Assembly (NCBI GenBank): GCA_910584305.1
Contig: CAJTZW010000004.1
Span: 45,967-109,966 of the forward strand
Direction of reading: 5' to 3'
Length of the DNA: 64,000 bases
From: an uncultured Bacilli bacterium
Lineage (GTDB): Bacteria; Bacillota_I; Bacilli_A; RF39; UBA660
Numbering within the stretch: the first letter of the stretch is position 1; each line of letters begins with the position of its first letter. The position numbers and the translations under genes were made by a program. Below, one piece after another: positions 6,995 through 29,485 of this stretch. Below the pieces are notes generated by a model. It was not told the DNA's origin and did not search any database. It was given only the letters and a program-made list of their open reading frames with translations.

Positions 6995-6995
6995 A

Positions 6996-7781: not shown

Positions 7782-7793
7782 GGAGAGATACCT

Positions 7794-10645: not shown

Positions 10646-10649
10646 GAGC

Positions 10650-11348: not shown

Positions 11349-11361
11349 AGGAGAGATATGT

Positions 11362-12678: not shown

Positions 12679-12715
12679 AATCCTCTATATTTCATTTTAT
12701 ATAGGAGGGTTGGAA

Positions 12716-13927
12716 ATGAAAAAAATAATTTTCAGTGTCTTTTGTTCACTTCTTATGATAGTTAATGTAAGTGCGTTAGACATCTATAGTAAGTATGCTG
12801 TCTTATATAATCTAAATGATGATGAAGTAATTTATGAACTGAATAAAGATGAAAGAACAAGCATTGCAAGTTTGACTAAAATTATGACAACACTAGTGGC
12901 AATCGAAAATATTTCTGATTATAACGGGAAAGTTACAATAAAAAGTAGTATGTTTACTGGACTTGCAGAAGAGAATGCTGCAGTGATTGGGCTTAGGAAT
13001 AACCAAGAAGTAACCTATAATGATTTATTGTATGGACTATTTTTAGGTAGTGGAGCAGATGCTGCTAGAGCACTTGCCATTTCTATTGCAGGAAGTGAAG
13101 ATAAATTTGTAGAATTGATGAATGTCAAAGCAAGTGAATTAAACCTGCAAAATACAAACTATACAAATACAGTAGGATTAGATGATGATGAACATTATTC
13201 TACAGTGGATGATGTTGCTACTTTATTAAAGATAGCTTACCAGAATGAAAAATTCAGAGAAATATTTACAACTGAATCCTATGTGTTTTCAGATCAATCT
13301 CTTATAGTAACTAGTACTTTTAGAAAAACAGCTAAGACATATGGACCAGATCCTTCATATATATTAGGTGCGAAAACAGGGTATACATATGATGCAGGTA
13401 GGTGCTTGGCTTCCATTGCTCTTGATGAAGAAAATCAAATCACATACTTATTAGTAACTACCAATGCAGAGTCTATTTATTACCCAGTTAAAGATGCTAT
13501 AACAATTTATAACCATTATTTTGAAAATTATAAATATTATAAACTGATAGAAAAAGGAGATTTACTAATCACTATTCCAACAAGATATTCAGATGCGAAA
13601 GAAATAAATTTCTATGCCGAAAAAGATATTCAAAAATACCTACATAATGATTTATCAGATTATAATGTTACTTTGCAATATGAGGGCGAAAAAGTTATTA
13701 CTCCAAGCATGGAAGCAAACTCTACTATAGGAAGTATTCAAGTAATTTATCAAAATGAAGTAATAGACACCATTGATATCATTTTGACCTCTAAAATTTC
13801 ATTTTCTCTAGTTGCTTTCATTATAGCTAATAAATTTATCTTTATAGTTATTGGCATATTGATAATTTTAGCTATAGAAATTATTAGAAGAATAAAGAAG
13901 AAAAAGTATAACAAAAAGAAAAAATAG
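12716..13927 (+). CDS. dacA: D-alanyl-D-alanine carboxypeptidase (S11 family, PBP5-like) with C-terminal membrane anchor
   Basis: RBS aggaggg before ATG 12716. Signal peptide. SIASLTKIM (SxxK) and KTGYT (KTG) motifs. C-terminal TM + basic tail. Confidence 0.8.
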   Translation: MKKIIFSVFCSLLMIVNVSALDIYSKYAVLYNLNDDEVIYELNKDERTSIASLTKIMTTLVAIENISDYNGKVTIKSSMFTGLAEENAAVIGLRNNQEVTYNDLLYGLFLGSGADAARALAISIAGSEDKFVELMNVKASELNLQNTNYTNTVGLDDDEHYSTVDDVATLLKIAYQNEKFREIFTTESYVFSDQSLIVTSTFRKTAKTYGPDPSYILGAKTGYTYDAGRCLASIALDEENQITYLLVTTNAESIYYPVKDAITIYNHYFENYKYYKLIEKGDLLITIPTRYSDAKEINFYAEKDIQKYLHNDLSDYNVTLQYEGEKVITPSMEANSTIGSIQVIYQNEVIDTIDIILTSKISFSLVAFIIANKFIFIVIGILIILAIEIIRRIKKKKYNKKKK

Positions 13928-14105
13928 TTATGACTCTTTAACTTTTTGTATCATATATAATATGAGTAGGGAATAACAGTTGTTGAGGTCTATCAAATCT
14001 CTGATAGAGAGGTTTGATAAAAATGAAGAAAAGAATCTTTGTGATAAAGGTTCTTCGCTACATAACTATCATTTTATCTCTTTTTACTATAATGGTAATA
14101 GAAAT

Positions 14106-14142
14106 AAAAAAATGACACTTAAGTCGATGACTTAAATGTCCA
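14106..14142 (-). terminator. Putative intrinsic terminator downstream of rnhC (minus strand)
   Basis: Plus strand has A7 then acttaagtc-gat-gacttaa(a)t. On the minus strand this is an imperfect hairpin followed by T7. Confidence 0.4.
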
Positions 14143-14241
14143 CCTAATTTCAACATAGCAAAGCTGAATGTTCCCATTTTATTATATGAAGTTTCCTTCA
14201 TTAGATACATAGCAACACAAAAATAATGATTTGACAAGATT

Positions 14242-15177
14242 TTACGCATTATGATTTAGTATTTTATCTGTATTTTTAAAATTTAATTTAGCAACTTCTT
14301 TTAGTTTATCAAATCCGTATTTTTCTACAATTTTAATACCTGTCTCATCAACATTAGGTCCAGCTCCCTTTGGCAGTAACATATTTAAACTCTTAGATAG
14401 CTTAGAAAATTCTTTAATAAAAATATATCTACTAATGATAGAAGCACATGCAACAGAAAGTGATTTATCCTCTCCCTTTGTGACAAAGGTAATATCACGA
14501 ACGACATTACTCGATTCTTTTAAATAACTAAAATAAACATACTTTTCTGCGAATTGATCCACTACAATATAATCATAGGAAAGATCTTCTTGTTTTAAGG
14601 TTGACAACACTTTATTATGTAAGATGGCTTTTAATTTATTCATATTATATCCTTGATTATATTTCTCATTATAATCTTGATTATTTAAAATAACAGTAGT
14701 GTATTTTATTCTTTCTATAATTTTAGGGACAATCTCTAAAATTTTTTCATCAGTCAATTTTTTAGAATCCTTAACACCCAATTTTTCTAAATAGGGAATA
14801 TCCTCTTTTGTTACATAGGAAGCAGTTACAACAATTGGACCAAAGTAGTCACCAGTTCCAACTTCATCAGACCCAATGGAAGTAGAGTGATATAATTTAG
14901 GATCTACTTTCACCTTGTCCTCTTTCTTCTTTTCTTCACTGTTTGTAGTTATTGCTTTTCCAGAATTGATTTTTTCAGTAGCTACCCAAAATTCAGAAGA
15001 TAAATCAGCATCACGGCCTTGAAAAACACATTTACCAGATTCATACAAAGTAACCACTGTATCTCCATCCTGCGCTTGAAAAACAGCATATGCAGGAGTT
15101 TTTTCCCTTTTTAAATCATCAAAAAATTCTAACATTTGTTCTTTTGTTTTATCAGATACCTTTAATGTTATTGTCAT
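14242..15177 (-). CDS. rnhC: Ribonuclease HIII
   Basis: 311 aa. N-terminal DUF3378-like region plus RNase HII-fold catalytic domain with GSDEVGTGDYFGP motif. Confidence 0.85.
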   Translation of the reverse strand: MTITLKVSDKTKEQMLEFFDDLKREKTPAYAVFQAQDGDTVVTLYESGKCVFQGRDADLSSEFWVATEKINSGKAITTNSEEKKKEDKVKVDPKLYHSTSIGSDEVGTGDYFGPIVVTASYVTKEDIPYLEKLGVKDSKKLTDEKILEIVPKIIERIKYTTVILNNQDYNEKYNQGYNMNKLKAILHNKVLSTLKQEDLSYDYIVVDQFAEKYVYFSYLKESSNVVRDITFVTKGEDKSLSVACASIISRYIFIKEFSKLSKSLNMLLPKGAGPNVDETGIKIVEKYGFDKLKEVAKLNFKNTDKILNHNA

Positions 15178-15299
15178 GTTATCACATCCTACACTTATTC
15201 TAACACGTTTCTTCTATTTCGTCCATATTGCTATGAATTTAAAATTCTTTCTTTTTTGAAAATTTTGTAATATAATAAACATAGAAGGGAATGATAATT

Positions 15300-16344: not shown

Positions 16345-16376
16345 AGAGAACGAATACTTTTGTTCTTTTTCTTTGC
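16345..16376 (+). terminator. Putative terminator after trxA
   Basis: aagagaac-gaatactttt-gttcttttt, an 8-bp stem with one G-U followed by a T-run. Confidence 0.4.
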
Positions 16377-16415
16377 TTTCTTTTAAATTTTGGTTATAAT
16401 GAAATGGGTGGTAAT

Positions 16416-17129
16416 ATGCAAAGATATTTTGCCAAAGATAAAATAGGAAATCAATTTATTCTAGGAAATGATGATTTATATCATATAAAAACTGTAATGC
16501 GCATGAGAGATAAAGATCAAATCTATGTAGTATTTAATCAAACTACGTATATTTGTTGTCTAGAAAATGTAAAGCAAAATATACAAATTATGATGGTTGA
16601 AAAGCAAGAAAAACTGACTCAATGCTTACCAGAAGTAATTTTATTTATACCTCTTTTAAAAGAACAAAAGATGGATTTGGTATTACAAAAAGCAACAGAA
16701 TTGGGGGTTTCTAAAATTGTTCCAATGACAACTTCACGAAGTATTATAAAGGTAAATGAAGAAAAAATTGATAAAAAAATAGAGAGATGGAGACGTATCT
16801 GTAAAGAGGCAAGTGAGCAGTCACATCGGGATATCATTCCGGAAATCACTCCTGTTATGGATATCATGCAGGTGAAAGATAGGGATGGATTATCCCTTGT
16901 TTGCAGTACTACTGAAAAAGAAAAAAATATTAAATACATATTACAAAAATATAGAGACTGTGATAAAATAAATGTAGTGATAGGCCCAGAAGGCGGACTA
17001 TCAAAGGAAGAAGAGGAATATTTGAAGAAAGTAGGATATATTCCAGTTACTTTGGGACATAATATTATGCGAGTGGAAACAGTTCCTATTTTCATTTTAA
17101 GTACAATCAATTATGAATTTATGGAGTGA
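16416..17129 (+). CDS. rsmE: 16S rRNA (uracil1498-N3)-methyltransferase RsmE
   Basis: Start MQRYFA after RBS ggtgg. C-terminal SPOUT fold with GPEGGLS motif. Confidence 0.85.
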   Translation: MQRYFAKDKIGNQFILGNDDLYHIKTVMRMRDKDQIYVVFNQTTYICCLENVKQNIQIMMVEKQEKLTQCLPEVILFIPLLKEQKMDLVLQKATELGVSKIVPMTTSRSIIKVNEEKIDKKIERWRRICKEASEQSHRDIIPEITPVMDIMQVKDRDGLSLVCSTTEKEKNIKYILQKYRDCDKINVVIGPEGGLSKEEEEYLKKVGYIPVTLGHNIMRVETVPIFILSTINYEFME

Positions 17130-17134
17130 TTAAT

Positions 17135-17977
17135 ATGCAAAGCTTAAATGAATTAATACAAAATAAAGCATTATTCTTTAGTGTGATTAGTGTACTCGTT
17201 GCAACTATAGCTTTGATTGGATACCTAATTTACAAAGAGAGAAAGGCAGACCAAGATGAGATTGATGAAATTATAAGCAATTTAGTAGAACCTAAAAGGA
17301 AGCCAATAATGGAAGAAGTAGAGAAGGATAAAGAGGAAATGAATGTAGTAGAGAAAGAAGAAATAACAAATACGATAGAGCAACCTAGTGCACCAAAACA
17401 AGAATCTGATTTAGATATAGAAGCAATGCTTGAACAAATGCAAAAAGATTTAAATGCTAAAGCAGAGGATGTTGTTGCAACCTTTGAGCAAGAACAAGAA
17501 GAAAATTCAATTATTAGTTATCAGGAATTGGTTCGTTCACTAAAGGGAGAGAAAGTAGCGCCTCAAATAGTAGAAGCGAAAGTAGAAGAACCAAAGTTAG
17601 AACAGCTCTCTATGGATGAGATTATAGAAGAACCAAAGAGAGCAGTAAAGCAAGAACCATCTAAAAAATTTAAGAATACAGATTTTATTTCACCAATATA
17701 TGGTAAAATGGAGGAACATTTAGAGTACCCAAGAGTACCATCTTTCCATAAAAATGACATGGAGATAGAAAAAGAATTAGAGACATATGAAAATGACACG
17801 GAAAGTAGTCTCATGAGCAAAAATATTGACGATTTCTTAGGGGATTTTGATTTTGATAACAATATAGAAGTAAATAGTTTAGAGCAAACATTAAATATGA
17901 AACCACTCAGTGAAGAGATTAAGAAAAATGATGAATTTTTACAGGCTCTAAAAGAATTTAGAAAAAATCTAGACTAG
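17135..17977 (+). CDS. Hypothetical N-terminally membrane-anchored acidic protein
   Basis: Single N-terminal TM (LFFSVISVLVATIALIGYLIY). The rest is Glu/Lys-rich and low complexity. RBS ggagtga. No recognisable domain. Confidence 0.45.
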   Translation: MQSLNELIQNKALFFSVISVLVATIALIGYLIYKERKADQDEIDEIISNLVEPKRKPIMEEVEKDKEEMNVVEKEEITNTIEQPSAPKQESDLDIEAMLEQMQKDLNAKAEDVVATFEQEQEENSIISYQELVRSLKGEKVAPQIVEAKVEEPKLEQLSMDEIIEEPKRAVKQEPSKKFKNTDFISPIYGKMEEHLEYPRVPSFHKNDMEIEKELETYENDTESSLMSKNIDDFLGDFDFDNNIEVNSLEQTLNMKPLSEEIKKNDEFLQALKEFRKNLD

Positions 17978-17995
17978 GTAATCCTAGTTTTTTTT
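17973..17995 (+). terminator. Intrinsic terminator before mtaB
   Basis: actagg-taat-cctagt hairpin followed by T8. Immediately upstream of the mtaB RBS. Confidence 0.45.
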
Positions 17996-18005
17996 GGAGG
18001 AAGTT

Positions 18006-19283
18006 ATGAAATTTAATATATATACATTGGGATGTAAGGTAAACACATATGAAAGTAATGTCATGATAGATAAATTAAAAGATGCTGGATATATAGAAGT
18101 AGATATAAATACGAAAGCAGATATATCAATCATCAATACATGCACAGTAACCAATACAGCAGACTCTAAATCTATGAAAATGATTCGTCATGCAATGAAA
18201 ATAAATCCAGATGCTATAATCGTTGTATGTGGGTGTATGATTCAAAACAAAAAAGAAGAGATAGAAGCAATTGATGGAATTGATATTGTGTTAGGAAATG
18301 TTGGTAAATCGAATATTGTAGAATATATAAAAGACTATCAAGAAAAAAAAGAACATATTTTTGATGTAAAAAAAATAGAAGATGTTCCTTTTGAATCCAT
18401 GACATTAAATAATTTTAATAAAACAAGAGCCTTTGTAAAAATACAGGATGGATGTAACAATTTCTGTTCCTACTGTATTATTCCATATACAAGAGGAAAT
18501 GTCCGAAGCAAAGAACGTGTTGATGTTTTACATGAAGTATGTACATTGGTACAAAATGGGCATAAGGAGATTGTTCTTACAGGAATTCATACAGGAAATT
18601 ATGGCGCAGAGTTTGAAAATTATGACTTTGCATCCCTATTAGAAGAACTCGTTCAAATTAAAGGGTTAGAACGTCTACGTATATCCTCAATTGAAATTAC
18701 TGAAATTAATGATAGAGTTTTAAAGATTATAGAAGAAAATAATATTTTAGTAAGCCATATGCATATTCCATTACAAAGTGGCGCAGATGCTATTTTAAAG
18801 AATATGAAACGTAAGTATGATATTAAGTACTTTAAAGATAAAACAAAACATCTTCGTACAATTCGCCCAGATATTTCTATAACAACAGATGTTATCGTAG
18901 GCTTTCCAGGGGAAACCGAAGAAGATTTTGAAGAGATGGTTCAAAATATTAAAGAAATTAATTTTTCTAAATTACATGTATTTCCATATTCAAAAAGAGA
19001 TGGCACAGTCGCAGCAACTATGAAAAATCAGATTGATGAGTCGTTGAAAAAGAAAAGAGCACACATTCTTTTAGAACTTTCTAAAGAATTAGAATTAGAG
19101 TATATGAATAAATTTATAGATAGAGAAGTAGAATATATACCTGAGGTATATAAAGATGGATATCTAATTGGACATACTGGTAACTATTTATCAATTAAGC
19201 AAAAAGGAGTAGAAAGTGAACTTCATAAACCTAAGAAAGCAGTAATAAAAGAAGTATCTTATCCATACTGTATAAGTGAATAA
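18006..19283 (+). CDS. mtaB: tRNA (t6A37) methylthiotransferase MtaB (MiaB-like radical SAM)
   Basis: MTTase N-terminal domain (YTLGCKVNTYES). Radical SAM CNNFCSYC. TRAM-like C-terminus. RBS ggagg. Confidence 0.85.
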   Translation: MKFNIYTLGCKVNTYESNVMIDKLKDAGYIEVDINTKADISIINTCTVTNTADSKSMKMIRHAMKINPDAIIVVCGCMIQNKKEEIEAIDGIDIVLGNVGKSNIVEYIKDYQEKKEHIFDVKKIEDVPFESMTLNNFNKTRAFVKIQDGCNNFCSYCIIPYTRGNVRSKERVDVLHEVCTLVQNGHKEIVLTGIHTGNYGAEFENYDFASLLEELVQIKGLERLRISSIEITEINDRVLKIIEENNILVSHMHIPLQSGADAILKNMKRKYDIKYFKDKTKHLRTIRPDISITTDVIVGFPGETEEDFEEMVQNIKEINFSKLHVFPYSKRDGTVAATMKNQIDESLKKKRAHILLELSKELELEYMNKFIDREVEYIPEVYKDGYLIGHTGNYLSIKQKGVESELHKPKKAVIKEVSYPYCISE

Positions 19284-19337
19284 TTTGACTTAAAAACAAT
19301 ATAAATGATATAATTGAAATAGGAATGGGGAAGAAAA

Positions 19338-19817
19338 ATGGAAAAAACATATTATGATGAATTGATTGAAAATATAGAAGATGAAAATAAAGCTTATGCT
19401 GAAGAAAGAAAAGAATTGAAAGAAAGAAAAACAACTCGCATTCAAAATTTAAAAATAAGAAAATCTAATATTAGAAAGCATTTCCTTTTGGCAGGGGTTT
19501 CTGGAATTGGGCTTGCTTTGGCAACTATAGGTGCACCTAAAATGTTTGAAGAAAAACCTCTTAAAGTTGTTACTGATGAACTTTTAGCAGACGCTAATTT
19601 ATATGAAACTGAAAATGGAAAATCAGTAGCTGGAAAAATGACGGATCAAGAATTGGTTGATTATATTAAAGAACATGGATTATCCCTAGATGATATTAAA
19701 GAAGAAACTATATCTAGTTTAAAATCAAATATGATTAATACAGAGTTTGGTATGGATAAAGTGGAAAAAGCCAATCCGGCAGTATTTGATGAAGAGAGTA
19801 AAGGTATGGGAAGATAA
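19338..19817 (+). CDS. Hypothetical membrane protein
   Basis: 159 aa. Charged N-terminus and one TM (LLAGVSGIGLALATIGA). No recognised domain. Confidence 0.45.
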   Translation: MEKTYYDELIENIEDENKAYAEERKELKERKTTRIQNLKIRKSNIRKHFLLAGVSGIGLALATIGAPKMFEEKPLKVVTDELLADANLYETENGKSVAGKMTDQELVDYIKEHGLSLDDIKEETISSLKSNMINTEFGMDKVEKANPAVFDEESKGMGR

Positions 19818-19839
19818 CAGGAATTTCCTGTTTTTTTAT
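19817..19839 (+). terminator. Intrinsic terminator
   Basis: acaggaatttcctgt palindrome followed by T7. Confidence 0.6.
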
Positions 19840-19916
19840 GTAAACTTTTACATAATATACTTTACTTATGAAACAATATAAGATATATTGTTTGTATGTG
19901 ATTTAAGAGGCGTGTT

Positions 19917-20540
19917 ATGAAAAAAATGTTAGATTTATTGTTTAAAATAATGATTGTTGTAGTAAGTGGAATAGGTCTTTTTCTAAATTTTAAATTACTA
20001 ACTATTAGAGATAGTATTATTTATTTCACTATTCAAAGTAATTTATTATGCTTTATTTTCTATTTAATAACAGTAATACTAATACTCACTAAGAAATTAA
20101 AGAAGAATAATATATATTATATTTCTAAAGGTATGACAACAATGGCTATTACTATTACATTCTTTGTATATTGGATTATATTATCTTCAGGAGAAGGTAT
20201 GGAAGCATATATAGGACATAATTTAGAAAATTACTTTGTTCATTTATTTACACCATTACTAGTAATATTTGATTATATTATATTTGGTGAAAAAGGAAAT
20301 TTAAAGAAGAATTATCCATTTATTTGGAGTTTTGTTTTAATAGCATATACATTGTTTGATATTATTTATGTAATGTTTGGGGGAACTTTTGCAGGTGGTG
20401 TTAAATATCCTTATCCTTATATGGATGTAGAGGAACTAGGATTATTTAAAGTATGTATCAATTGTATGGTTATATATGTATTCTTTGTAGGATATGGCTC
20501 TATTGTGCAGTGGCTAGACTATAAGCTTTCAAGAAAATAG
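19917..20540 (+). CDS. Hypothetical polytopic membrane protein
   Basis: 207 aa. 5-6 predicted TM helices. No confidently recognised family. Confidence 0.5.
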   Translation: MKKMLDLLFKIMIVVVSGIGLFLNFKLLTIRDSIIYFTIQSNLLCFIFYLITVILILTKKLKKNNIYYISKGMTTMAITITFFVYWIILSSGEGMEAYIGHNLENYFVHLFTPLLVIFDYIIFGEKGNLKKNYPFIWSFVLIAYTLFDIIYVMFGGTFAGGVKYPYPYMDVEELGLFKVCINCMVIYVFFVGYGSIVQWLDYKLSRK

Positions 20541-20688
20541 AAAATTGAAAATGCTCGAAAAGATATAATTAGGAATAATATTAAATAAAGGTATGCTAAA
20601 ATCTATAGTTCTTTCTAAAGAAAAAATGAATAGAATGATGTAGTCATAAAAACATTAAGTAAAAATAATACAAATTTGTCAAAAAATG

Positions 20689-20717
20689 TTGCATTTTACC
20701 AAATTTTGGTATAAAAT
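20689..20717 (+). promoter_or_regulatory. Sigma-A-like promoter upstream of rel leader
   Basis: TTGCAT - 17 nt - TAAAAT. Confidence 0.4.
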
Positions 20718-20749
20718 CTATTTAAATTTTACTTGAGGGAGTGTAGCAT

Positions 20750-20860
20750 ATGATTAGAAATCCATTATTTGAATTTAATATGGTAGACAGTGTTAAAATC
20801 AATATTTTTAGTACTATTTGTTCACGCCTTTCTTGTAAAAGACAATTTATGAAGCAGTAA
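20750..20860 (+). CDS. Unannotated 36-aa leader ORF upstream of rel
   Basis: Strong RBS gagggag 8 nt before ATG 20750. ORF MIRNPLFEFNMVDSVKINIFSTICSRLSCKRQFMKQ. Stop codon lies in the left arm of the following hairpin. Confidence 0.35.
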   Translation: MIRNPLFEFNMVDSVKINIFSTICSRLSCKRQFMKQ

Positions 20861-20899
20861 CATTAACGCTTAATTGTGCGATGTTGCTGCTTTTTTTGT
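20852..20899 (+). terminator. Terminator/attenuator hairpin in rel leader
   Basis: aagcagtaac ... gttgctgctt 10-bp stem (one G-U) with an internal mini-hairpin attaa-cgc-ttaat. Followed by T7. Lies 17 nt before the rel RBS ggaggtg. Confidence 0.5.
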
Positions 20900-20915
20900 A
20901 GTTGGAGGTGTTTAT

Positions 20916-22358
20916 ATGAATAATATCACCATTGAAAAATTACTTGATGTTGTTAGATGTTATAATGAAGAGTCAGCAGAAGAAGTAAAAAAAGCTTATG
21001 AATATGCAAGCAGTCTTCATGAAGGTCAGATGAGACAGAGTGGAGAGCCATATATTTCACATCCTTTAAATGTAGCTTATATTTTAGCAGAAATGCATGC
21101 AGATAAAGATACATTATGTGCAGGTCTTTTACATGATACATTAGAGGATACTGATACTACTAAGGAAGAAATTGCTAGATTGTTTAGTGATGATGTTGCT
21201 AATATGGTAGATGGAGTTACTAAAATTAGTAAATTAAATTTTTCTACTAAACAAGAACAAAATATGGCCAATACAAGAAAGATAATTACTAGTATGCAGT
21301 CAGATATTCGAATTGTACTCGTTAAACTTGCAGATAGATTACACAATATGAGAACTCTACAGTTTAAATCAGAATATAAACAAAAAGAAAATTCGATTGA
21401 AACGATGGAATTATTTGTACCCATGGCTTACCAATTAGGAGCATATCGAATAAAAAGTGAATTAGAAGATCTATCTTTTAAGTACATCGATCCAGATGGC
21501 TATAAAAAAATACAAGCGATTATGAATCGTATAGAAGAAGATAGTAAATCTTGTATTGAAGAAATGCTTGGTAAAATTAATGAAATATTGAGTGCTAGAG
21601 AAATACCAAATGAAGTTAAAGTTAGAGTAAAAAATATATATGGAATTTATAAAAGGCTTCAATCTGGGCGTCGTTTAAGTGATATTCATGATTTAATTTC
21701 TTTTAAGATAATGGTAGAAGAAATTGATCAATGTTACTTGATGTTAAGACCAATTCATGAAGTATATAAACCAGTAAATGGGAAAATGAAAGATTTTATA
21801 TGTAATCCTAAAACTAATAAGTATCAATCATTACACACAACAGTCTTTGGACCTGATGATAGGCTTGTACAGATGCAGATACGTACATTTGATATGGATA
21901 AAGTAGCGTCTTTTGGGCTTGCTACATATTGGGATATTCATAAGGGAAAGGCTAGAACAGTAATGCAAGAAGAATTGAAAAATAAATATCAATTTTATCA
22001 ATCATTGTTAGAAATAAATAAAGTATTTGGAGATAATCAAGAGTTTGTATATCAGGCTAAGAATGAATTATTTTCTGATAAAGTATATGTTTATAATTCT
22101 AAAGGGGAAGTTATTGAACTTCCTAAAGGATCAACACCAGTAGACTTTGCATACAGAATAAGCCCTGATGTAGGGAATACTATGGTTGGGGCAATTGTAA
22201 ATGATGTTTATGTTTCTATTGATACAGAATTAAAAAATAAAGATAGAGTAATTATTGTTACTGATGATTTATCGTTTGGAGTAAGACAAGATCTGTTAGA
22301 TAAAGCAAAGACTACTTATGCTAAGCAGATGATAAAAGAATTTAATGGTAAGGGGTGA
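20916..22358 (+). CDS. rel: Short RelA/SpoT-homolog (HD hydrolase + synthetase + TGS, no ACT/zinc-finger C-terminal region)
   Basis: RBS ggaggtg before ATG 20916. HD motif HDTLED. Synthetase core YQSLHTTV...MQIRT. TGS YVYNSKGEVIELPKGSTPVDFAY. The ORF ends about 60 aa after TGS. Confidence 0.85.
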   Translation: MNNITIEKLLDVVRCYNEESAEEVKKAYEYASSLHEGQMRQSGEPYISHPLNVAYILAEMHADKDTLCAGLLHDTLEDTDTTKEEIARLFSDDVANMVDGVTKISKLNFSTKQEQNMANTRKIITSMQSDIRIVLVKLADRLHNMRTLQFKSEYKQKENSIETMELFVPMAYQLGAYRIKSELEDLSFKYIDPDGYKKIQAIMNRIEEDSKSCIEEMLGKINEILSAREIPNEVKVRVKNIYGIYKRLQSGRRLSDIHDLISFKIMVEEIDQCYLMLRPIHEVYKPVNGKMKDFICNPKTNKYQSLHTTVFGPDDRLVQMQIRTFDMDKVASFGLATYWDIHKGKARTVMQEELKNKYQFYQSLLEINKVFGDNQEFVYQAKNELFSDKVYVYNSKGEVIELPKGSTPVDFAYRISPDVGNTMVGAIVNDVYVSIDTELKNKDRVIIVTDDLSFGVRQDLLDKAKTTYAKQMIKEFNGKG

Positions 22359-22362
22359 AAAA

Positions 22363-23826
22363 ATGGATTTGGATTTTGAACTAGAAAAAATAAAGAAAAA
22401 GGTTGTAAATTTCATAGATACTTTTTCATTAGCGCAAGTTGGCTCAAGTGTTGAAAAAAATAATTTTCATGATATAGATATGCTATGTGTAGTAGATGAT
22501 AAGATGAATGGAATGTTAAGTTTAGTGGAGTGTTTTTCAGATTATCATATTCTACTTTTAGATGATGCTGTTAAAATTTTGGATTTATGTCAATATGAAG
22601 TAAGTATTGCTATTTATTCTTTTAATGAGATAGAACAACTTATTGATAATTATGTTACTGGTAATAGAGTTTTTTGTGAACATAGAACATGGACAATCGG
22701 TTATTGGACATGTGAAGGTTTTGTTCATGATCTAAAAAATTGTAAAATAATCTATGATAGCAATGATAGATTGAAAACTATAAAAATGAATTTAAGCATT
22801 GGAACTTTATATAGTAAAAAGAAAATTTTATCAGATTGCTTAGAAGAAATTGAAATTAAGCAAGAATTGTTAAAACGTCAAGACTTATTTCAAAGGACTT
22901 TTTTAAAGAATGACATTGTTTTAGCTATGATCAGAAGTTGTTATGTTTTATGTGGTTATCATTTGGAAGGTTTTAAAAATATCTTACAAGTTATTGATAA
23001 TTTGCCATTAAAATATAAGAATATTATAATAGCTTATCTTGAAAAAGATGATGACATTAATTTACAAAAAATTAAGAATGAAATTTTAACTAATATTGAT
23101 TTTACAACTAATCTTTATTTAGGAACATGGCAATATAGTGGTGATTTCAAACAGCTTTCTGATGAACAAATTATTAAATTAATTTCTTATGCTAAACAAA
23201 AAGGAATAAAGCAATTTGATACAGCATTGGTGTATGGTGGAGGCAAAGTTGAAAAGTTATTAGCCAAGGTAATTGATGATTCTGATAAAATTGTTACAAA
23301 AATACCTGCTAAGGTCAAACCTGAAATTGTTTTTGTTGGCAATTTAAAAGAATATTATGATTTTGATTATATTAAAAGCTGCTTGAATACGTCATTATCT
23401 AATTTAAAACGTAAAAAGGTAGATATAGTATTATTACATAATTGGGTTAAGGAATGGAATGATTCTACAGATTTAATGGATTGGCTGACATCATTAAAAA
23501 AGTCTGGTTACGTTGATAAAGTAGGAATTTCTTTACCTAATGGCTACGGAGAGTGTTTACCTGAACACATTTTAAAACAAATTGATGTAATTGAAGCTCC
23601 ATATAATCCTGATAATCTATGGATTGTCAAAGATATTAATAAGTATAAAGAGAATAATATTGAAATAATATTACGAAGTTTATTTATACAAGGACGGTTG
23701 TTGTATGATAATGTACAAAACTATTCGACTATTTTAAATAAAGCTCAGTTACTTGGAACTTCATTAGTAATAGGAATGACTACAGAAACTCAAATTGACA
23801 ATAATATAAAAGTATTAAAAAGATAG
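22363..23826 (+). CDS. Fusion protein: Pol-beta-superfamily nucleotidyltransferase (N) + aldo/keto-reductase-like domain (C)
   Basis: RBS aagggg before ATG 22363. AQVGSSVEKNNFHDIDMLCVVDD fits the GS...DxD minimal NTase motif. C-terminal LGTWQY...FDTALVYGGGKVEKLL is the AKR signature. Confidence 0.6.
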   Translation: MDLDFELEKIKKKVVNFIDTFSLAQVGSSVEKNNFHDIDMLCVVDDKMNGMLSLVECFSDYHILLLDDAVKILDLCQYEVSIAIYSFNEIEQLIDNYVTGNRVFCEHRTWTIGYWTCEGFVHDLKNCKIIYDSNDRLKTIKMNLSIGTLYSKKKILSDCLEEIEIKQELLKRQDLFQRTFLKNDIVLAMIRSCYVLCGYHLEGFKNILQVIDNLPLKYKNIIIAYLEKDDDINLQKIKNEILTNIDFTTNLYLGTWQYSGDFKQLSDEQIIKLISYAKQKGIKQFDTALVYGGGKVEKLLAKVIDDSDKIVTKIPAKVKPEIVFVGNLKEYYDFDYIKSCLNTSLSNLKRKKVDIVLLHNWVKEWNDSTDLMDWLTSLKKSGYVDKVGISLPNGYGECLPEHILKQIDVIEAPYNPDNLWIVKDINKYKENNIEIILRSLFIQGRLLYDNVQNYSTILNKAQLLGTSLVIGMTTETQIDNNIKVLKR

Positions 23827-23838
23827 GTTTGTGATAAT

Positions 23839-25044
23839 ATGAATGATGTTAAAAATAATGTTATAAATGTAGAAGTAAATGGTAAAAAACATGCATTATG
23901 TGAGTATATGTTTGGAGCATTAGAAATGAATCATAATAGCCCATTGTGTTGTGTTAGTGAAGCCAATAATTCTTTTAGTATTGATTATTGGAAAGGGTGT
24001 TCTTATCAATGTGCATATTGTCATGTTCAGGGGATCTATGAAGACTTAGATGAAGATTTTAGAATGTATAAACATCCAATTCCAAGAAGTACATTTTCAA
24101 TAGAAGAAATAATAAATGCTTTGATTGAACATAAGTATTTTGAAAAGGATAAAAGTGTAATAAGTATTGCAACTTCAAGTACTGAACCTTTTGCTAATGA
24201 AGGGGTTACTGAAAGTACATTAAGAATAATGGAATATTTTGTAGAACTTGGATATAAAAATCCTTTTTGGATTGTGACAAAAGCTGGAGTTCCAAAGAAT
24301 ATTTCTAATAGATTGAGAAAGATATGTAATAATGGAAATAAAATCATGATTTCAATTTGCTACGCAAATAATCCTAAAGAGATAGAACCAGCGCAAAACA
24401 ATAGATTTAGGAATGTTGAAGAACTTAAAAATACAGGTGTAACTATTAGTTGGTATATGCGCCCTCTTGTACAAGAATGGGGTGCTAACAGGGATTCTCT
24501 TGAAAAATTAATACAAAGTGTTAGTGAAAAATATTATGATTGTATTGATATGATTATACCTGGTGGTTTACGTTGGACTGAAGGAATCGAATTTGGTTTA
24601 AAAGATATAAGAGGTCTTGAAATGCCAAAACTTATAAAAGAATATAATAAGAAAACTTTATCAAATGATATAGAAAATGCTATACTAGAGTTATGTAATA
24701 AATATTTTCCAAATAAACCAGTCTATTTTCATTCTTCATGTGGTATTTCACATATGTTAAATAAATCGAATATAGCTTTGTTAAATATTTTTGATTCTGA
24801 AGTTTGTAATAAATCGAAGTGTTTTAATAGTTGTAAAAATAAGTGTTTAAAGAGACAGTTTAAGCATAATGAATTATTGAAGTTTGAAGATGCCTTGTCA
24901 AAAATTGGTATTAACATAAAAATACATGGTATCGATTTAGAAAAAAAAATAATTTCAAAGCCTGAGTTTGATACTTATACATACACTATAAAACAACAAA
25001 TAAAGAAAACTATAGCTGAAGTTATTAGTGAGGAGGATTTATGA
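23839..25044 (+). CDS. Radical SAM protein, SplB/COG1533-like (spore-photoproduct-lyase family fold)
   Basis: WKGCSYQCAYCHVQ contains CxxxCxxC. C-terminal Cys cluster CNKSKCFNSCKNKC. 401 aa. Confidence 0.55.
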   Translation: MNDVKNNVINVEVNGKKHALCEYMFGALEMNHNSPLCCVSEANNSFSIDYWKGCSYQCAYCHVQGIYEDLDEDFRMYKHPIPRSTFSIEEIINALIEHKYFEKDKSVISIATSSTEPFANEGVTESTLRIMEYFVELGYKNPFWIVTKAGVPKNISNRLRKICNNGNKIMISICYANNPKEIEPAQNNRFRNVEELKNTGVTISWYMRPLVQEWGANRDSLEKLIQSVSEKYYDCIDMIIPGGLRWTEGIEFGLKDIRGLEMPKLIKEYNKKTLSNDIENAILELCNKYFPNKPVYFHSSCGISHMLNKSNIALLNIFDSEVCNKSKCFNSCKNKCLKRQFKHNELLKFEDALSKIGINIKIHGIDLEKKIISKPEFDTYTYTIKQQIKKTIAEVISEEDL

Positions 25045-25952
25045 AACCAAAAAGATTAGAGATAAATGATACTATAGGAGTATGTGCTCCTTCTGGTGTG
25101 GTAAAGAGTAAACATAAGAATGAATTAGATAAGGCGGAAAACTTGTTAAAAGAATTTGGAATTAATGTTGTATATTCTGAAAATCTTTATGCCAATTATT
25201 ACGGATATTCAGCTTCTGTTGAAGAAAAATGTAATGATATAAATAGTTTGATAAATGATAGCACAGTTAAAGCGATAATTTTTGCTAAAGGCGGTGCTAA
25301 TTGTAATTCTATTTTAGATAAAATAGACTATGATAATTTAAAAAAGAACCCTAAATTTTTAATTGGTTTTAGTGATAACACTATTTTATTAAATGCAATA
25401 AATAAGCAAACTGGATTGGTTACATATCATTTTACAAATTATAAAGGATTTTGCGAAGAAAATTTAGTTTTTAATAAAGCCCAATTTCAAAATGTAATGA
25501 TTAATGGTAATTATGGTGTTGTGGAAAAAAGCAGTGAATGGAAACAATTGCGTGGCGGAATAGCAACTGGAAAATTGGTAGGAGGAAATTTATCTTCGCT
25601 CGTGAAGATAGTAAATACTAAGTATTGCCCTAGTTTTAATAATTCTATTTTATTTTTAGAAGAATTAGGACTTGAGTCTGATTCAGAAATGATTTCTAGT
25701 TATTTATACCAATTGAAACAAGCTCAAGTTTTTGAAAAAATTTCAGGATTATTAATTGGAAATTATGATGCAAAAGAAAATATTTCTTTAGAAAAAATTA
25801 TTTTAGATGTGGTTAAGGAATATGATTTTCCTATAGTTAAGTGTAATGATTTTGGTCATACTAGAAATAATATAATATTACCGATAGGACTTCGTTGTAC
25901 ATTAGATGCAGATAAATGTGAATTAATGTATAATGAGAAAACAGCTATTTAA
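25041..25952 (+). CDS. S66-family serine peptidase (LD-carboxypeptidase LdcA / microcin C7 immunity MccF family)
   Basis: LIGFSDNTILLNA nucleophile-Ser motif. 303 aa. ATGA overlap with upstream stop plus RBS gaggagg (translational coupling). Confidence 0.75.
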   Translation: MKPKRLEINDTIGVCAPSGVVKSKHKNELDKAENLLKEFGINVVYSENLYANYYGYSASVEEKCNDINSLINDSTVKAIIFAKGGANCNSILDKIDYDNLKKNPKFLIGFSDNTILLNAINKQTGLVTYHFTNYKGFCEENLVFNKAQFQNVMINGNYGVVEKSSEWKQLRGGIATGKLVGGNLSSLVKIVNTKYCPSFNNSILFLEELGLESDSEMISSYLYQLKQAQVFEKISGLLIGNYDAKENISLEKIILDVVKEYDFPIVKCNDFGHTRNNIILPIGLRCTLDADKCELMYNEKTAI

Positions 25953-25963
25953 AGGAGGAAATT

Positions 25964-27097
25964 ATGCAATCAAGAAATTCAAATGATATAAAATTAAGTT
26001 ATAAACAATATTCTGATAAAATGGGATATATATATCATGACAGTATTCCAATTGTAGCTTCAGAGAAATCAAGATTGTTATTTAATATATCTGGTGGGGT
26101 TCGTTATCAAGAAGAACTATTAGAACAAAAACGTGCTGAGGAAGAACAGGTTTCATCAATTCAAAAATGTGTGAGAACAGATAGTATTGATAGCGTTGGA
26201 ATATCTGGTAGACATCATATATGTTTTGAGATGTTAGGTCATTTTATGTTTTATTCACATAATGAAAAAGAGACAAAAGAAAACTTTATTGAATTTGCAT
26301 ATAATTTTTTAGTACGTGAGTTAGAATTAGGGCGTAATCGAATTTTTGCTACTGTGCATCCCAATGATGAAGTTACATTAAGAGTTTGGAATAAATTAGA
26401 AAATAAAAATATCATTACAAATGATAAGAATATTTTTATTTCTCCTTATGCTGAAAAAAGTGCTTTAAGAACAGAAATATTATGGCAAAGAACTGATGAA
26501 TCATTGGTTGAGTTATGGAATCTTGTATTCACTCAGTTTAATAGCAGTAAATTATTTGAAAATCCTAGTTTAACGGTTGGTGCAGATTCAGGGGCTAGTT
26601 TAGAGAGAATAGTAAGTGCATACGAAAATAAAGATAATAACTATGAAAATTCAATGTGGGTGGATTATGTAAAATATATCAGTGAATTAGGGAATAAAGA
26701 TGATATATATATATTGAGGAAAATTGCTGATTTAATGAATGCTATTGTTAATTTAATTCAAGAGGGACTAATTCCAGGTAATAAAGTTCAACCATATATG
26801 TTAAGAAAAATGATGCGAAATACTTTTGATTTATGTGATGATTTATGTATTGATGTTAATCAGTTATTGAGTTATATAACAACTGATGAAAGTGTTCAAT
26901 TAATTTTTGAAGATGAAAAAAATAAGTATGATAAAAGTATTGTTAACGGATTAAAACAGGCAGAAAAATTAATAAATAAACTTGGTATAGAAAATATTGA
27001 TATTAATTATTTAAAATCAACTTGTGGACTTTCTAATAGATATATTAACATTTTATTATCGTCATCTTATGAAAAAACAAAAGTAAAAAAACAATAA
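25964..27097 (+). CDS. Stand-alone alanyl-tRNA synthetase catalytic-domain paralogue (class II AlaRS N-terminal fragment-like)
   Basis: SSIQKCVRTDSIDSVGISGRHHICFEMLGHFMF aligns with AlaRS motif 2 (SQRCVRAGG...[20 protein letters not shown]). Only 377 aa, so no editing or C-Ala domains. RBS aaaggagg. Confidence 0.7.
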   Translation: MQSRNSNDIKLSYKQYSDKMGYIYHDSIPIVASEKSRLLFNISGGVRYQEELLEQKRAEEEQVSSIQKCVRTDSIDSVGISGRHHICFEMLGHFMFYSHNEKETKENFIEFAYNFLVRELELGRNRIFATVHPNDEVTLRVWNKLENKNIITNDKNIFISPYAEKSALRTEILWQRTDESLVELWNLVFTQFNSSKLFENPSLTVGADSGASLERIVSAYENKDNNYENSMWVDYVKYISELGNKDDIYILRKIADLMNAIVNLIQEGLIPGNKVQPYMLRKMMRNTFDLCDDLCIDVNQLLSYITTDESVQLIFEDEKNKYDKSIVNGLKQAEKLINKLGIENIDINYLKSTCGLSNRYINILLSSSYEKTKVKKQ

Positions 27098-27344
27098 ATA
27101 TTTTAATTAATAATGAATTGTAAAGCAATAAAAAATTGTAAGAAATTTTATAGAGAATGTTTATCATTCTTAGATAATCAATTATATTTTTGCTAAAACT
27201 TATAAATTTTGCTAGCATATTTGGAGAAGCAGATATTAATGATGTTTATAGAAAGTAACTGATTGATGGAAGTCCGAGAATTTCTTCGCGTTATCAGGAG
27301 AACATATATGATGGTATATGAAAGAAACTATTTTTAGATGGCAC

Positions 27345-27385
27345 AAGACTCTTGCCCTATTTTAGGTCAGGAGTCTTTTTATATT
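27345..27385 (+). terminator. Hairpin + T-run in long leader upstream of acyl-AMP ligase gene
   Basis: aagactc ... gagtctt 7-bp stem with a 19-nt loop. Followed by ttttatatttt. Preceded by short uORFs with RBS. Confidence 0.35.
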
Positions 27386-27622
27386 TTAAGAAGTTGATAA
27401 AATGTTTTTACTAGTTAATCAAGGGTGTTTTAGATTATGAGTTATTTTAAATATTCAAAATAAATTTTATAAATATATAAGTGATGAAAATTATTTAAAA
27501 AAATACTTGAAATTGAAATTCAAAAAGCTAGAGTTATTGCAAGTAATAAAATGGAAGAAGTTAAATAAAAATAGGGTTAAAATTATAAGAATGTGGTATA
27601 ATTGACTTGTAAACACCAAAAT

Positions 27623-27650
27623 TTGACAAATATTTAGAAATATGTATAAT
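27623..27650 (+). promoter_or_regulatory. Strong sigma-A-type promoter for adenylate-forming enzyme gene
   Basis: TTGACA (27623-27628) - 16 nt - TGTATAAT extended -10 (27643-27650). RBS aaagagggggg follows at ~27661. Confidence 0.6.
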
Positions 27651-27682
27651 AAGCGCCAACAAAGAGGGGGGAAAAATAATAT

Positions 27683-29485
27683 ATGGAACAAAATCAAAAG
27701 AAAGATTATCAAAAAACTGCTTATCAATATTTAGAGGATCGTACTAAAAATTTAGGAAGTAATATTGCTAAAAATTTTTATGGTAGAAAGATCACTTATG
27801 ATGAATTTAAAGATAAAATATCTGATGTAGCTAAAGGGTTTAAAGGAATGGGGATTTCGGAAGGTAGTAGAGTAGGTGTGATCATGCCTAATGTTCCCGA
27901 AACATCTTATATTCAATATGGGCTTAATAAGATTGGCGCTGTTGCTGATTACATTGATCCTAGAACTAAACCAATTGTTCTAAGAGACTTTATTGAAAAT
28001 GAAAATTTAGATATGCTTGTTTGTGCAAAAGAATGTTATGGTGGTACAATTCAGCCTATTGAAGCTGATGTAAAAAATATGCTTAGAATTGCTCAGATTT
28101 TAACACCTTCTAGTCTGGAATCATTACCATTTGGTTTGAAACAATTGATGAATTTAAGAAGTCAAATTGCGAAATTATCTGAAAAAAGTAAACAGCAAAA
28201 TATTATAAATACATTGGAGTATTCCCAATTTATAAAACAGTCAAAATATATAACAGGGACAACAGCTAATTATGTTGCTGATAGATTAGCTATAATTACC
28301 CATTCATCAGGAACTACAGGTACACCTAAACCTATACCTTTGACTAATGATAATATGAATGTACTGGTTTCTCAACATGACTTATTAGATTTAGGAATAA
28401 AACCAGGTATGAAGTTTTTACATATTCTGCCTTATTTTGCTGCATATGGTTCTGTAAATTCTGAACATTTAGGCTCTTGTATGGGAATGGAAATGCTTGA
28501 AATACCTATTTTTGATATTGAAAAGCTGGCATATTTAGTTCTAAAATCAAAACCTAATATAATTATTGGTATTCCATCTTGGTGGGAAGTGATTGTTGAT
28601 AGTCCATGTATGAAGAATGCTAATCTATCATTCTTAAATGTTGCTGTTGCAGGTGGAGATTCATTAGAACCAATTAAGGAGCAAAGAATCAATGAGTTTT
28701 TAATTAGCCATGGTGCAAAATGTATACTATCTAAAGGTCATGGAATGTCTGAAATTGCTGGTTGTGGCACATATACTACAAAGGATTGCAATAATTATGG
28801 CGACGTTGGTAAACCACTACCATTTACTAAGTATTTAGTTGTAGATCCAAATACTAAAATGCCACTACCATTTGATGGAACTAAAGAAATTACAGGAGAA
28901 GCTTATATAACAAGCCCAGCTTTGTCTCCAGGAAAATTAGATGGCAAGGATGTTATTAAGACAGATTATATAGGTGGACATAGATGTGTTGTTAGTGGCG
29001 ATTTAATTACTGTTAGAAAAGATGGAAGCATTCATTTTGAAGAACGTTTAGATAGAGGATTTACTCGATTTGATGGTTACAAAATTCATCCTTCAAAAAT
29101 AGAAAATTGTATAAAGGGACATCAAGCTATTAAGGATTGTATGATAGTTAATTACTATGAAGAATTATATTATGGTAATATGCCAATAATTCATGTAGTA
29201 TTAAATGAAGAATATGTAGATGTAGATTATGAAGTTATTATAGATGAGATTGTGTTTAAAAATATGCAAAATGATAAAGAGTTAACAACAAGGGATATCC
29301 CTGTTAAATGGAAATTTAGAGATAGTATTCCAATTACTTCAATGTCTAAAAAGGATTATAAAAAGTTGATTTCCGAAGGTGTTGCTGGAGATGAATACAC
29401 TGTTAGAATTGAAGAAGATAATCTTAAAATTAAATCTATGCAAATACAAAAACCTGAACAAAATAAGGAAAAGGTTAAGAAATAA
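27683..29485 (+). CDS. Adenylate-forming (AMP-binding) enzyme, acyl/aryl-CoA-ligase-like with ~80-aa C-terminal extension
   Basis: ITHSSGTTGTPKPIPLT (A3/P-loop). GHGMSEIAGCGTYT (A5). VVSGDLITVRKDGSIHFEERLDRGFTRFDGYKIHPSKIE (A7-A8). 600 aa. Confidence 0.8.
   Translation: MEQNQKKDYQKTAYQYLEDRTKNLGSNIAKNFYGRKITYDEFKDKISDVAKGFKGMGISEGSRVGVIMPNVPETSYIQYGLNKIGAVADYIDPRTKPIVLRDFIENENLDMLVCAKECYGGTIQPIEADVKNMLRIAQILTPSSLESLPFGLKQLMNLRSQIAKLSEKSKQQNIINTLEYSQFIKQSKYITGTTANYVADRLAIITHSSGTTGTPKPIPLTNDNMNVLVSQHDLLDLGIKPGMKFLHILPYFAAYGSVNSEHLGSCMGMEMLEIPIFDIEKLAYLVLKSKPNIIIGIPSWWEVIVDSPCMKNANLSFLNVAVAGGDSLEPIKEQRINEFLISHGAKCILSKGHGMSEIAGCGTYTTKDCNNYGDVGKPLPFTKYLVVDPNTKMPLPFDGTKEITGEAYITSPALSPGKLDGKDVIKTDYIGGHRCVVSGDLITVRKDGSIHFEERLDRGFTRFDGYKIHPSKIENCIKGHQAIKDCMIVNYYEELYYGNMPIIHVVLNEEYVDVDYEVIIDEIVFKNMQNDKELTTRDIPVKWKFRDSIPITSMSKKDYKKLISEGVAGDEYTVRIEEDNLKIKSMQIQKPEQNKEKVKK

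Follow-up and report, generated by a model that had tools for sequence, protein, structure and literature searches.

An accessory cassette behind rel in gut Bacilli joins an AlaRS paralogue to an uncharacterised radical-SAM triad and may make an aminoacyl-transfer-derived metabolite

Albomycin, ascamycin, agrocin 84 and microcin C belong to the natural products associated with paralogues of aminoacyl-tRNA synthetases (aaRS), and several of them are aaRS inhibitors of pharmaceutical interest. A gene set that recalls these systems lies directly behind rel in a 64,000-nt stretch of DNA from an uncultured Bacilli bacterium (contig CAJTZW010000004.1). The whole stretch is called the window, and positions given without a locus label are positions within it. 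The set is a four-gene cassette that encodes a nucleotidyltransferase (NTase)-like domain fused to an aldo/keto reductase (AKR) (geneA), a radical S-adenosylmethionine (SAM) enzyme (geneB), an S66 serine peptidase (geneC), and a paralogue of alanyl-tRNA synthetase (AlaRS) (geneD). A pathway for an aminoacyl-transfer-derived metabolite is the best explanation of the cassette, with a probability of about 0.5.

The closest described systems each share a part of this gene content. In albomycin biosynthesis, the SerRS paralogue AbmK supplies seryl-adenylate, and AbmF couples it to a radical-SAM-tailored thionucleoside; AbmK, an extra aaRS copy in the cluster, also confers self-resistance (PMC8323819). 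AgnB2, MccF, and MccE are further precedents (PMC8323819). For ascamycin, the pair AcmD/AcmF consists of an AlaRS homologue and a truncated AlaRS-like aminoacyl transferase that alanylates a nucleoside analogue, and AcmF, which has lost adenylation residues (N219Q, D232E), uses Ala-tRNA (PMC12945691). Aminoglycoside deoxygenation employs the radical-SAM diol dehydratase and reductase AprD4/AprD3 together with APH-type activation by GenP (PMC7941887).

The four proteins have the folds that the original prediction gave them, as judged by profile, alignment, and structure comparison. The 377-aa product of geneD, expected to be an AlaRS paralogue without editing and C-Ala domains, indeed contains the AlaRS core: it matches PF01411 at positions 5-376 of 552 (E 8e-45), lacks both the editing domain and C-Ala, and retains part of the helical tRNA-recognition domain. 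With 157 bits against a cut-off of 457 for TIGR00344, the alaS equivalog, it falls outside the full-length AlaRS family. The active-site residues were read from an alignment to Aquifex aeolicus AlaRS (1RIQ) and from a 42-member family alignment, in which R71, E183, N186, V188, D208, G210, and R215 are invariant. R71 corresponds to Escherichia coli R69, the stretch E183-W-N186-x-V188 to E209, N212, and V214, and D208-S-G210 to D235 and G237, while R215 is the motif 3 Arg; the pattern RHH..F.M.G.F is invariant as well. An AF2 model of the protein (pLDDT 92.6) resembles AlaRS catalytic fragments with TM scores of 0.74-0.81. Because the residues of the alanine and ATP sites are intact, geneD very probably makes Ala-AMP, from which alanine may be transferred either directly to a small molecule or via tRNA. 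Of its 92 relatives of ~375 aa, about one third are 50-63% identical and come from metagenomes of gut and rumen; the others are ~35-40% identical, and all named ones among these belong to the candidate phyla radiation (CPR; Parcubacteria/Paceibacterota).

The N-terminal domain of geneA adopts the two-lobed fold of kanamycin nucleotidyltransferase (ANT(4')), with an NTase lobe and a helical lobe, and this NT-like fold is closest to small-molecule NTases. Its NTase motif residues are G27-S28, D37-x-D39, and D67-D68. The window protein and every fused Firmicute copy keep the G-S...D-x-D pattern and the third carboxylate. In CPR orthologues, G-S and D-x-D are replaced by G-[LR] and K-x-D, which leaves D39, D67, and D68 as the only motif residues invariant across the family. 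In the CPR homologue of this domain, a 251-aa protein (E 8e-16), both the Ser and the first Asp of the motif are missing. The domain has no Pfam NTP_transf_2 match. The C-terminal half is an AKR (PF00248, E 1.5e-24, 87 bits against a gathering threshold of 24) that is short, at ~245 aa, and has an intact Asp-Tyr-Lys-His tetrad when aligned to Bacillus subtilis IolS (1PYF).

The product of geneB carries the radical-SAM motif CSYQCAYC (C54-x3-C58-x2-C61), and CxxxCxxC is invariant across its family. Five more cysteines are invariant (C174, C301, C323, C328, and C336), a conservation pattern that suggests an auxiliary Fe-S or Zn site. Matches to known families are weak and below cut-off: PF04055 scores 22.6 bits against 29.5, and the equivalog models of spore photoproduct lyase (SPL; SplB), PA0069, and Rv2578c score 19-28 bits against cut-offs of 360-430, which places the protein outside all three. 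An exhaustive HMMER search of 1.84 billion proteins returned 34 representatives at E ≤ 1e-30, and a CPR orthologue is 43% identical. A phage collection searched with the geneB protein gave no match and a plasmid collection only five distant ones at 22-24% identity.

Both S66 domains (Pfam PF02016 and PF17676) are present in geneC, and alignment places its catalytic Ser, Glu, and His in the motifs GFSD, LFLEE, and FGHT. The proposed kinship with MccF holds, as geneC scores far nearer to MccF-like proteins than to LdcA: the PDB matches are the Bacillus anthracis MccF-like protein BA_5613 (9e-37), E. coli MccF (1e-27), and LdcA (1e-11 to 1e-17). The NCBIfam muramoyltetrapeptide carboxypeptidase model reaches E 6.6e-30, with 104 bits against a cut-off of 378. 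In E. coli MccF the interdomain loop bears the adenine-stacking Trp186. The corresponding loop of geneC is ~23 residues shorter than that of BA_5613.

The grouping of these proteins extends well beyond the window. Family maps made by BLASTP and clustering comprise 26 loci, and the NT-like, AKR, and radical-SAM parts, here called the triad, occur together in every one of them. Three kinds of fusion are found: NT-AKR in Bacilli, and elsewhere AKR-radical-SAM (P0286, P0290, P0291, P0294) and radical-SAM-NT (P0284, P0289). In CPR loci, the parts are separate genes with 4-bp overlaps. All 26 loci also contain a paralogue from an aaRS superfamily, which is AlaRS-like in 19, a class I LysRS-like protein (PF01921) in five, and an amino-acid:[ACP] ligase (NF005479, E 4e-20) in two, L021 and L022. 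The LysRS-like protein is present in two copies each in L019 and L020, one of them fused to a metallophosphoesterase; the F7 protein of the LysRS-type loci matches nothing in NCBIfam or the PDB, and nothing in Pfam below E 0.01. A serine peptidase of family S66 or S51 accompanies the triad in 24 loci, and GNAT acetyltransferases in two. A second and more canonical AlaRS fragment of 430-456 aa adjoins the cluster in nine. L021 and L022 have ATP-grasp ligases, a major facilitator superfamily (MFS) exporter, and an RNPP or TPR-HTH regulator nearby, and L022 has a peptidyl carrier protein (PCP) adjoining the ligase.

The radical-SAM alignment, run against one genome per species, found the gene in 23 of 185,579 species genomes. 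Hosts include Bacilli, Erysipelotrichaceae, Clostridia, and Lachnospiraceae metagenome-assembled genomes (MAGs), the cultured Thermoactinomyces sp. DSM 45892 (cluster at L022, about 6292-15216), and many Saccharibacteria and other CPR bacteria; there is one distant archaeal match. This is a rare cluster family common to gut Bacilli and candidate-phyla bacteria, best placed among the aaRS-paralogue-dependent biosynthetic clusters, with an uncharacterised triad; the literature searched contained no description of the gene combination.

Because no locus has one of its parts without the other two, and because each of the three possible pairings is found as a fusion, the triad can be regarded as one catalytic unit. 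The activator, for its part, is obligatory but interchangeable (alanine, lysine, or carrier-protein-linked with ATP-grasp ligases), and therefore the product of the triad would be the acceptor that is aminoacylated. Such cluster logic is that of specialised metabolism and not of a fixed macromolecular modification. From the observed folds, intact catalytic residues, co-occurrence and fusions, and accessory status, we infer the following substrate, order of steps, product, and biological role. By analogy, the triad would remodel a hydroxylated small molecule of the sugar or nucleoside type. The NTase-like domain would bind or activate a hydroxyl of the acceptor, the radical-SAM enzyme would carry out a radical dehydration or oxidation, and the AKR, using NAD(P)H, would reduce the resulting carbonyl. 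This would be an AprD4/AprD3- or viperin-like deoxygenation logic, with a substrate proposed by analogy and not from sequence. The AlaRS paralogue would form L-alanyl-AMP and then pass the alanine to the acceptor, and the MccF-like peptidase would either cleave the alanyl conjugate, to the protection of the host, or trim it. On the MccF analogy, the S66 or S51 peptidase may serve self-protection or may be a pathway enzyme, and its near-universal presence (24 of 26 loci) favours the latter role over that of an immunity factor.

A wider version of this proposal is possible, if doubtful. Gut Bacilli and CPR bacteria might exchange compact pathways in which a nucleoside-type molecule has its ribose or sugar deoxygenated or otherwise altered by the triad and is then aminoacylated by an interchangeable aaRS paralogue, giving translation antimetabolites like puromycin or aminoacyl-adenylates; the Bacilli copies would reside in a hypervariable island for production, immunity, or defence at the 3' end of rel.

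Compared with albomycin (AbmK, AbmF, AbmJ, AbmM), the likeness lies in the joining of an aminoacyl-adenylate from an aaRS paralogue to a nucleoside-type acceptor tailored by a radical-SAM enzyme, and in the extra aaRS copy within the cluster, which is paralleled here by the nine loci with a second AlaRS fragment. The differences are that no siderophore genes are seen in the window, that the amino acid is probably alanine, that geneB resembles SPL, PA0069, and Rv2578c only below cut-off, and that the hosts are Streptomyces in one case and gut Bacilli and CPR bacteria in the other. Like AcmF, geneD is a truncated AlaRS-like protein composed of the aminoacylation domain and a tRNA-recognition part; unlike AcmF, it has retained Asn186 and Asp208 at the corresponding positions, along with the rest of the adenylation residues, and so is not an AcmF-type protein, and the sulfamate and chlorination genes of ascamycin are absent. 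With microcin C immunity (MccF, MccE), the cassette shares an MccF-nearest geneC with its Ser-His-Glu motifs, and sister cassettes described below supply RimL-type GNATs and S51-GNAT fusions; the MccA peptide, the ThiF-like MccB enzyme, and the MccC exporter are not found here, and the loop that holds Trp186 in E. coli MccF is the one shortened in geneC. AprD4/AprD3 and GenP are matched by a radical-SAM enzyme with an NAD(P)H reductase and by a resistance-type hydroxyl-activating protein used in biosynthesis, here with the ANT(4') fold. In this case the likeness is mechanistic only; the reductase is an AKR, and genes for aminocyclitol formation or glycosyltransferases are absent. Amino acid:[carrier protein] ligases replace the AlaRS-like protein in L021 and L022, in the latter beside a PCP; the window cassette differs in having no carrier protein and in an activator derived from AlaRS and not from SerRS. 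The original prediction of an aminoacyl-nucleotide with self-immunity survives in part and is plausible. An aminoacyl-transfer-derived metabolite is still the best reading; microcin C or ascamycin machinery is missing, with no MccA precursor peptide or ThiF-like MccB among the window genes or related loci and no sulfamate genes, and the product may be nucleotide in nature.

Several observations weigh against the pathway. The window cassette has no exporter, carrier protein, or regulator, and secretion of a product is not evident. Neither the radical-SAM protein nor the NT-like protein has a characterised homologue; profiles of both families gave no match to PDB sequences. Judging from the alignments, the loss of the NTase Ser and first Asp in CPR may mean that nucleotidyl transfer is not the conserved role of the domain. 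The peptidase may be too constant across loci for a typical immunity gene. In L005, an S66 and AlaRS-like pair occurs alone, without the triad, which fits an independent and possibly immunity-only module. The condensation-like match of a 405-aa protein in L022 (E 4e-4, 19.5 bits) falls below the Pfam cut-off of 30.6.

The cassette might instead serve immunity or detoxification only, with the AlaRS-like protein as a decoy, the S66 enzyme cleaving, and the ANT-like, AKR, and radical-SAM parts modifying foreign aminoacyl-nucleotide antibiotics that inhibit aaRS. The MccF-like proteins to which geneC is closest hydrolyse aminoacyl-adenylate analogues (PMC8323819), the NT-like domain shares its fold with an antibiotic-resistance enzyme, and the solitary pair in L005 would suit such a role. 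So would the APH-like kinases, RimL/MccE-type GNATs, S51-GNAT fusions, and aaRS genes of the sister cassettes at rel, some of these aaRS genes being in tandem and some perhaps housekeeping. This explanation is unlikely nonetheless, as a triad fused in every pairing looks like a pathway and not like a resistance factor, and it is also clustered with a PCP, an amino acid:carrier protein ligase, ATP-grasp ligases, and an MFS exporter; a decoy, moreover, needs no invariant full catalytic set that includes the motif 3 Arg. The lack of an exporter in the window cassette agrees with immunity and equally with a chemical defence against phages, in which an intracellular modified nucleotide or aminoacyl-nucleoside would block phage replication or translation in the manner of prokaryotic viperins. 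The patchy distribution across phyla and the hypervariable island speak for such a defence, as do a sister cassette with a B12 radical-SAM enzyme matching PDC-M51A (E 2e-45) and a SPASM enzyme with a partial prokaryotic viperin (pVip) match, and the dCTP-deaminase-like genes of another cassette. It is improbable all the same: five window proteins compared with PADLOC v2 gave no match at E ≤ 0.01, close phage homologues are missing, plasmids offer only the five distant radical-SAM matches, and the presence of an MFS exporter and an RNPP-type regulator gives related loci the look of clusters for a secreted metabolite.

Modification of a macromolecule (tRNA, rRNA, or a translation factor) tied to rel, comparable to EpmA/EpmB on EF-P or ArcS/RaSEA on tRNA, has to be weighed because the cassette directly follows rel in five loci whose Rel proteins are 41-100% identical. 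The CPR cassette also lies among aaRS genes, geneD keeps part of a tRNA-recognition domain, and one of the weak geneB matches, SPL, is a nucleic-acid repair enzyme. A macromolecular target is nevertheless very unlikely, given that the closest relative and most of the clade do not have the cassette, and that it lies away from rel in L007, L012, and L016-L018, and has an NT-like fold that best matches small-molecule NTases. A fixed macromolecular target is at odds with activators that interchange between alanine, lysine, and carrier protein, with ATP-grasp ligases, and with an MFS exporter, and the proximity of aaRS genes to rel is partly coincidence, the order rel-dtd-hisS-aspS being ordinary Firmicute synteny. 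A housekeeping cassette for peptidoglycan recycling or the cell wall, built around an LD-carboxypeptidase, would be suggested by the inclusion of LdcA in the S66 family and by the hit of geneC to the muramoyltetrapeptide carboxypeptidase model. That hit stays far below its cut-off, the MccF-like PDB match (BA_5613) is at least 20 orders of magnitude better than LdcA, no murein genes are linked, and the cassette is rare and dispensable, so that this explanation is highly improbable and a housekeeping role is excluded for practical purposes.

The claim that this is not a housekeeping cassette is borne out by its accessory status. L036, a metagenomic relative with a Rel 87% identical to that of the window, has the window gene order minus the four genes (RsmE, x, MtaB, x, x, rel, AMP ligase, hybrid kinase, Hpt, kinase, RecD2). 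In nucleotide alignment, 16372-22336 of the window is 79-84% identical to L036; similarity ends at the rel stop codon, breaking off at 22337, and returns at 30113. The identical four-gene set stands in unrelated flanks in L007 and L012. Comparison of these sequences indicates that a horizontally mobile accessory operon, 22363-27097, occupies a variable region just 3' of rel. Past the rel stop codon, the junctions could not be aligned to the empty site, and a search for flanking direct or inverted repeats as att sites gave only AT-rich chance matches. No integrase family, as first observed, and no transposase family is found among the genes called from 10 kb upstream to 10 kb downstream of geneD. 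The argument for horizontal acquisition from an AT-rich block fared less well: the cassette is mildly AT-rich, with a GC content of 25.9-27.5% where genes average 29.6% (sd 3.0; z -0.7 to -1.2) and GC3 z values of -0.95 to -1.85, and deviations this mild make a weak compositional case for recent transfer, which was rejected as strong evidence.

The AMP-binding ligase behind the cassette, once counted as a possible part of the system, is a neighbour: it occupies the same position in L036, where the cassette is missing, and has its own promoter. A ligase of this kind follows rel with or without the cassette (L036, L039, L019), and elsewhere it accompanies the cassette only in the rel-linked L019. 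Between the window and L036, the ligase counterparts (11572-13458 in L036) are 33% identical and the kinases 70%, and therefore the variable block reaches over the ligase. Such divergence at a conserved position behind rel suggests, from the alignment, allelic replacement or very fast divergence.

The layout of the region is given in Table 1; the window has a G+C content of ~30% and carries almost every gene on the + strand.

Table 1. Features of the rel-cassette region, numbered by position in the 64,000-nt window
Feature	Position	Strand	Description
rel	20913..22358	+	Upstream anchor; HD, RelA_SpoT synthetase, and TGS domains; no ZFD/ACT
geneA	22363-23826	+	N-domain 22363..23082 (ANT(4')-like); C-domain 23083..23826 (AKR)
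geneB	23839-25044	+	Radical-SAM enzyme
geneC	25041-25952	+	S66 serine peptidase, MccF-like
geneD	25964-27097	+	377-aa AlaRS aminoacylation-domain paralogue
Intrinsic terminator	27345-27385	+	Predicted hairpin and U-tract, dG -22.5 kcal/mol, z -4.5
Spacer geneD/AMP-binding ligase			585 bp
Sigma-70 consensus promoter	27623-27650	+	TTGACA-16-TATAAT, 12/12 match, ahead of the AMP-binding ligase
AMP-binding ligase gene	27683-29485	+	Neighbour, not a cassette member

The tight coupling of the four genes behind rel is as first described, both in the open reading frames and in their junctions. Between the rel stop codon and the geneA ATG there is a 4-nt gap, and the Shine-Dalgarno (SD) sequence of geneA, AAGGGG, lies within the final rel codons AAGGGGTGA. 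Some public gene calls start geneA at an alternative in-frame ATG at 22345, within the end of rel, and so give it 493 aa; SD spacing favours the ATG at 22363. A 12-nt gap separates geneA from geneB, geneB and geneC overlap by ATGA, and geneC and geneD are 11 nt apart. The series of consecutive strong SDs that had been reported is true of geneC (GAGGAGG) and geneD (AAGGAGG) and does not extend to geneB, whose SD is weak. No terminator-like site was found from rel to the end of geneD, and the cassette is probably co-transcribed with rel, which would supply its transcription; the predicted hairpin downstream of geneD closes this transcription unit. The separate promotion of the AMP-binding ligase is upheld by its perfect sigma-70 consensus. 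A search of the whole window against Rfam, together with a sensitive scan of the spacer ahead of the ligase, gave no riboswitch and no T-box, and there are no tRNA genes in the window.

Long RelA/SpoT homologue (RSH) enzymes possess helical, zinc-finger (ZFD), and ACT/RRM domains that are reported to act in ribosome binding and autoinhibition. The Rel of the window is 480 aa long, contains only the three domains of Table 1, and matches TIGR00691 at positions 1-448 of 687. Short Rel proteins form more than 120 protein clusters at 68-87% identity, all of 476-484 aa. Truncation of rel by insertion of the cassette was considered and rejected, as all close relatives have this length; a length of ~480 aa and the lack of helical, ZFD, and ACT/RRM domains are uniform for Rel in this clade of gut Bacilli. 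The short Rel was likewise rejected as a general component of the cassette, as it is far commoner than the cassette and occurs with the empty site. Apart from the window, the cassette directly follows a short rel in L013, L014, L015, and L019, whose Rel proteins are 41-68% identical to that of the window; L019 has S51 genes upstream of rel as well. The proposed linkage to the rel 3' end is thus correct as direct adjacency and reflects a hypervariable hotspot downstream of rel in this clade, not an evident fusion of function; a functional tie between the cassette and the stringent response is possible.

The hotspot was sampled in 43 further metagenome loci with relatives of the short Rel and in L036 to L041, and the rel 3' flank proved hypervariable, with at least a dozen cassette types. 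The window cassette sits in an integration and diversification hotspot and probably borrows the transcription of rel. S66 peptidases occur in the sister cassettes of 11 loci, and S51 peptidases are present too. Other contents are RimL/MccE-type GNATs, APH-like kinases, methyltransferases, SPASM and B12 radical-SAM enzymes, a YcaO and C39 set for ribosomally synthesised and post-translationally modified peptides (RiPPs), and dCTP-deaminase-like genes. The aaRS genes comprise TrpRS/TyrRS-type genes directly behind rel, MetRS, LeuRS, ArgRS, class II D/K/N tandems, and AlaRS fragments; some of those near rel are surely housekeeping, because of the classic Firmicute synteny mentioned above.

If the cassette does direct an aminoacyl-transfer pathway, it would enlarge the small group of aaRS-paralogue natural products by a new enzymatic route and probably also by a new class of compound. 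A very small orphan radical-SAM family would gain a function, as would an ANT(4')-like fold used outside resistance, and a specialised metabolism common to Bacilli of the human gut and ultra-small CPR bacteria would be revealed. With one host, Thermoactinomyces sp. DSM 45892, in culture, the question is open to direct test, and the variable island 3' of rel is a useful place for mining further cassettes.

Some details of the related loci deserve mention. In L007, metK (9475-10584), the SAM synthetase gene, lies immediately 3' of the four-gene cassette and would suit a SAM-consuming pathway. AlaRS fragments with canonical motifs are found at L013 844-2205, L041 10479-11849, and in CPR loci such as L010 4586-5878; those of L013 and L041 directly follow rel and are 62% identical to each other. 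Such 430-456-aa fragments may be extra copies, for resistance or a dedicated function, or the sole AlaRS of these small genomes. The short contigs L013 and L014, binned as Muribaculaceae and Paludibacteraceae, encode a Bacilli-type short Rel that is 57-61% identical to the window Rel, and L032, a 1.34-Mb contig labelled Gammaproteobacteria, has a CPR-type cluster with a radical-SAM protein 82% identical; the MAG labels of all three look wrong.

Examples of the rel-flank islands are L042 11437-21437, L047 11440-21440, and L061 11410-21410. In L038 (11449-17026, on a 1.3-Mb contig), 5 bp separate rel from the gene for a 606-aa aldehyde-dehydrogenase/LuxC-like protein fused to a C-terminal Pol-beta NTase; genes for ArgRS, a short-chain dehydrogenase/reductase (SDR), and a phosphodiesterase follow. 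This NTase was rejected as a homologue of the geneA N-domain (hhalign probability 0.1). At L069 14248-15498 and L042 12934-14223, a B12-binding radical-SAM enzyme encoded just 3' of rel matches the PADLOC candidate PDC-M51A, and the partial prokaryotic viperin match of the neighbouring SPASM radical-SAM enzyme (E 1e-19) covers its N-terminal half. Fusions at L046 10363-11601, L047 19005-20243, and L076 16680-17717 are of the S51-GNAT (RimL/MccE-type, 413 aa) and NUDIX-S51 (346 aa) kinds. They belong to other rel-island cassettes and not to that of the window, and their domain pairings give the strongest indirect hint of substrates that resemble aminoacyl- or peptidyl-nucleotides.

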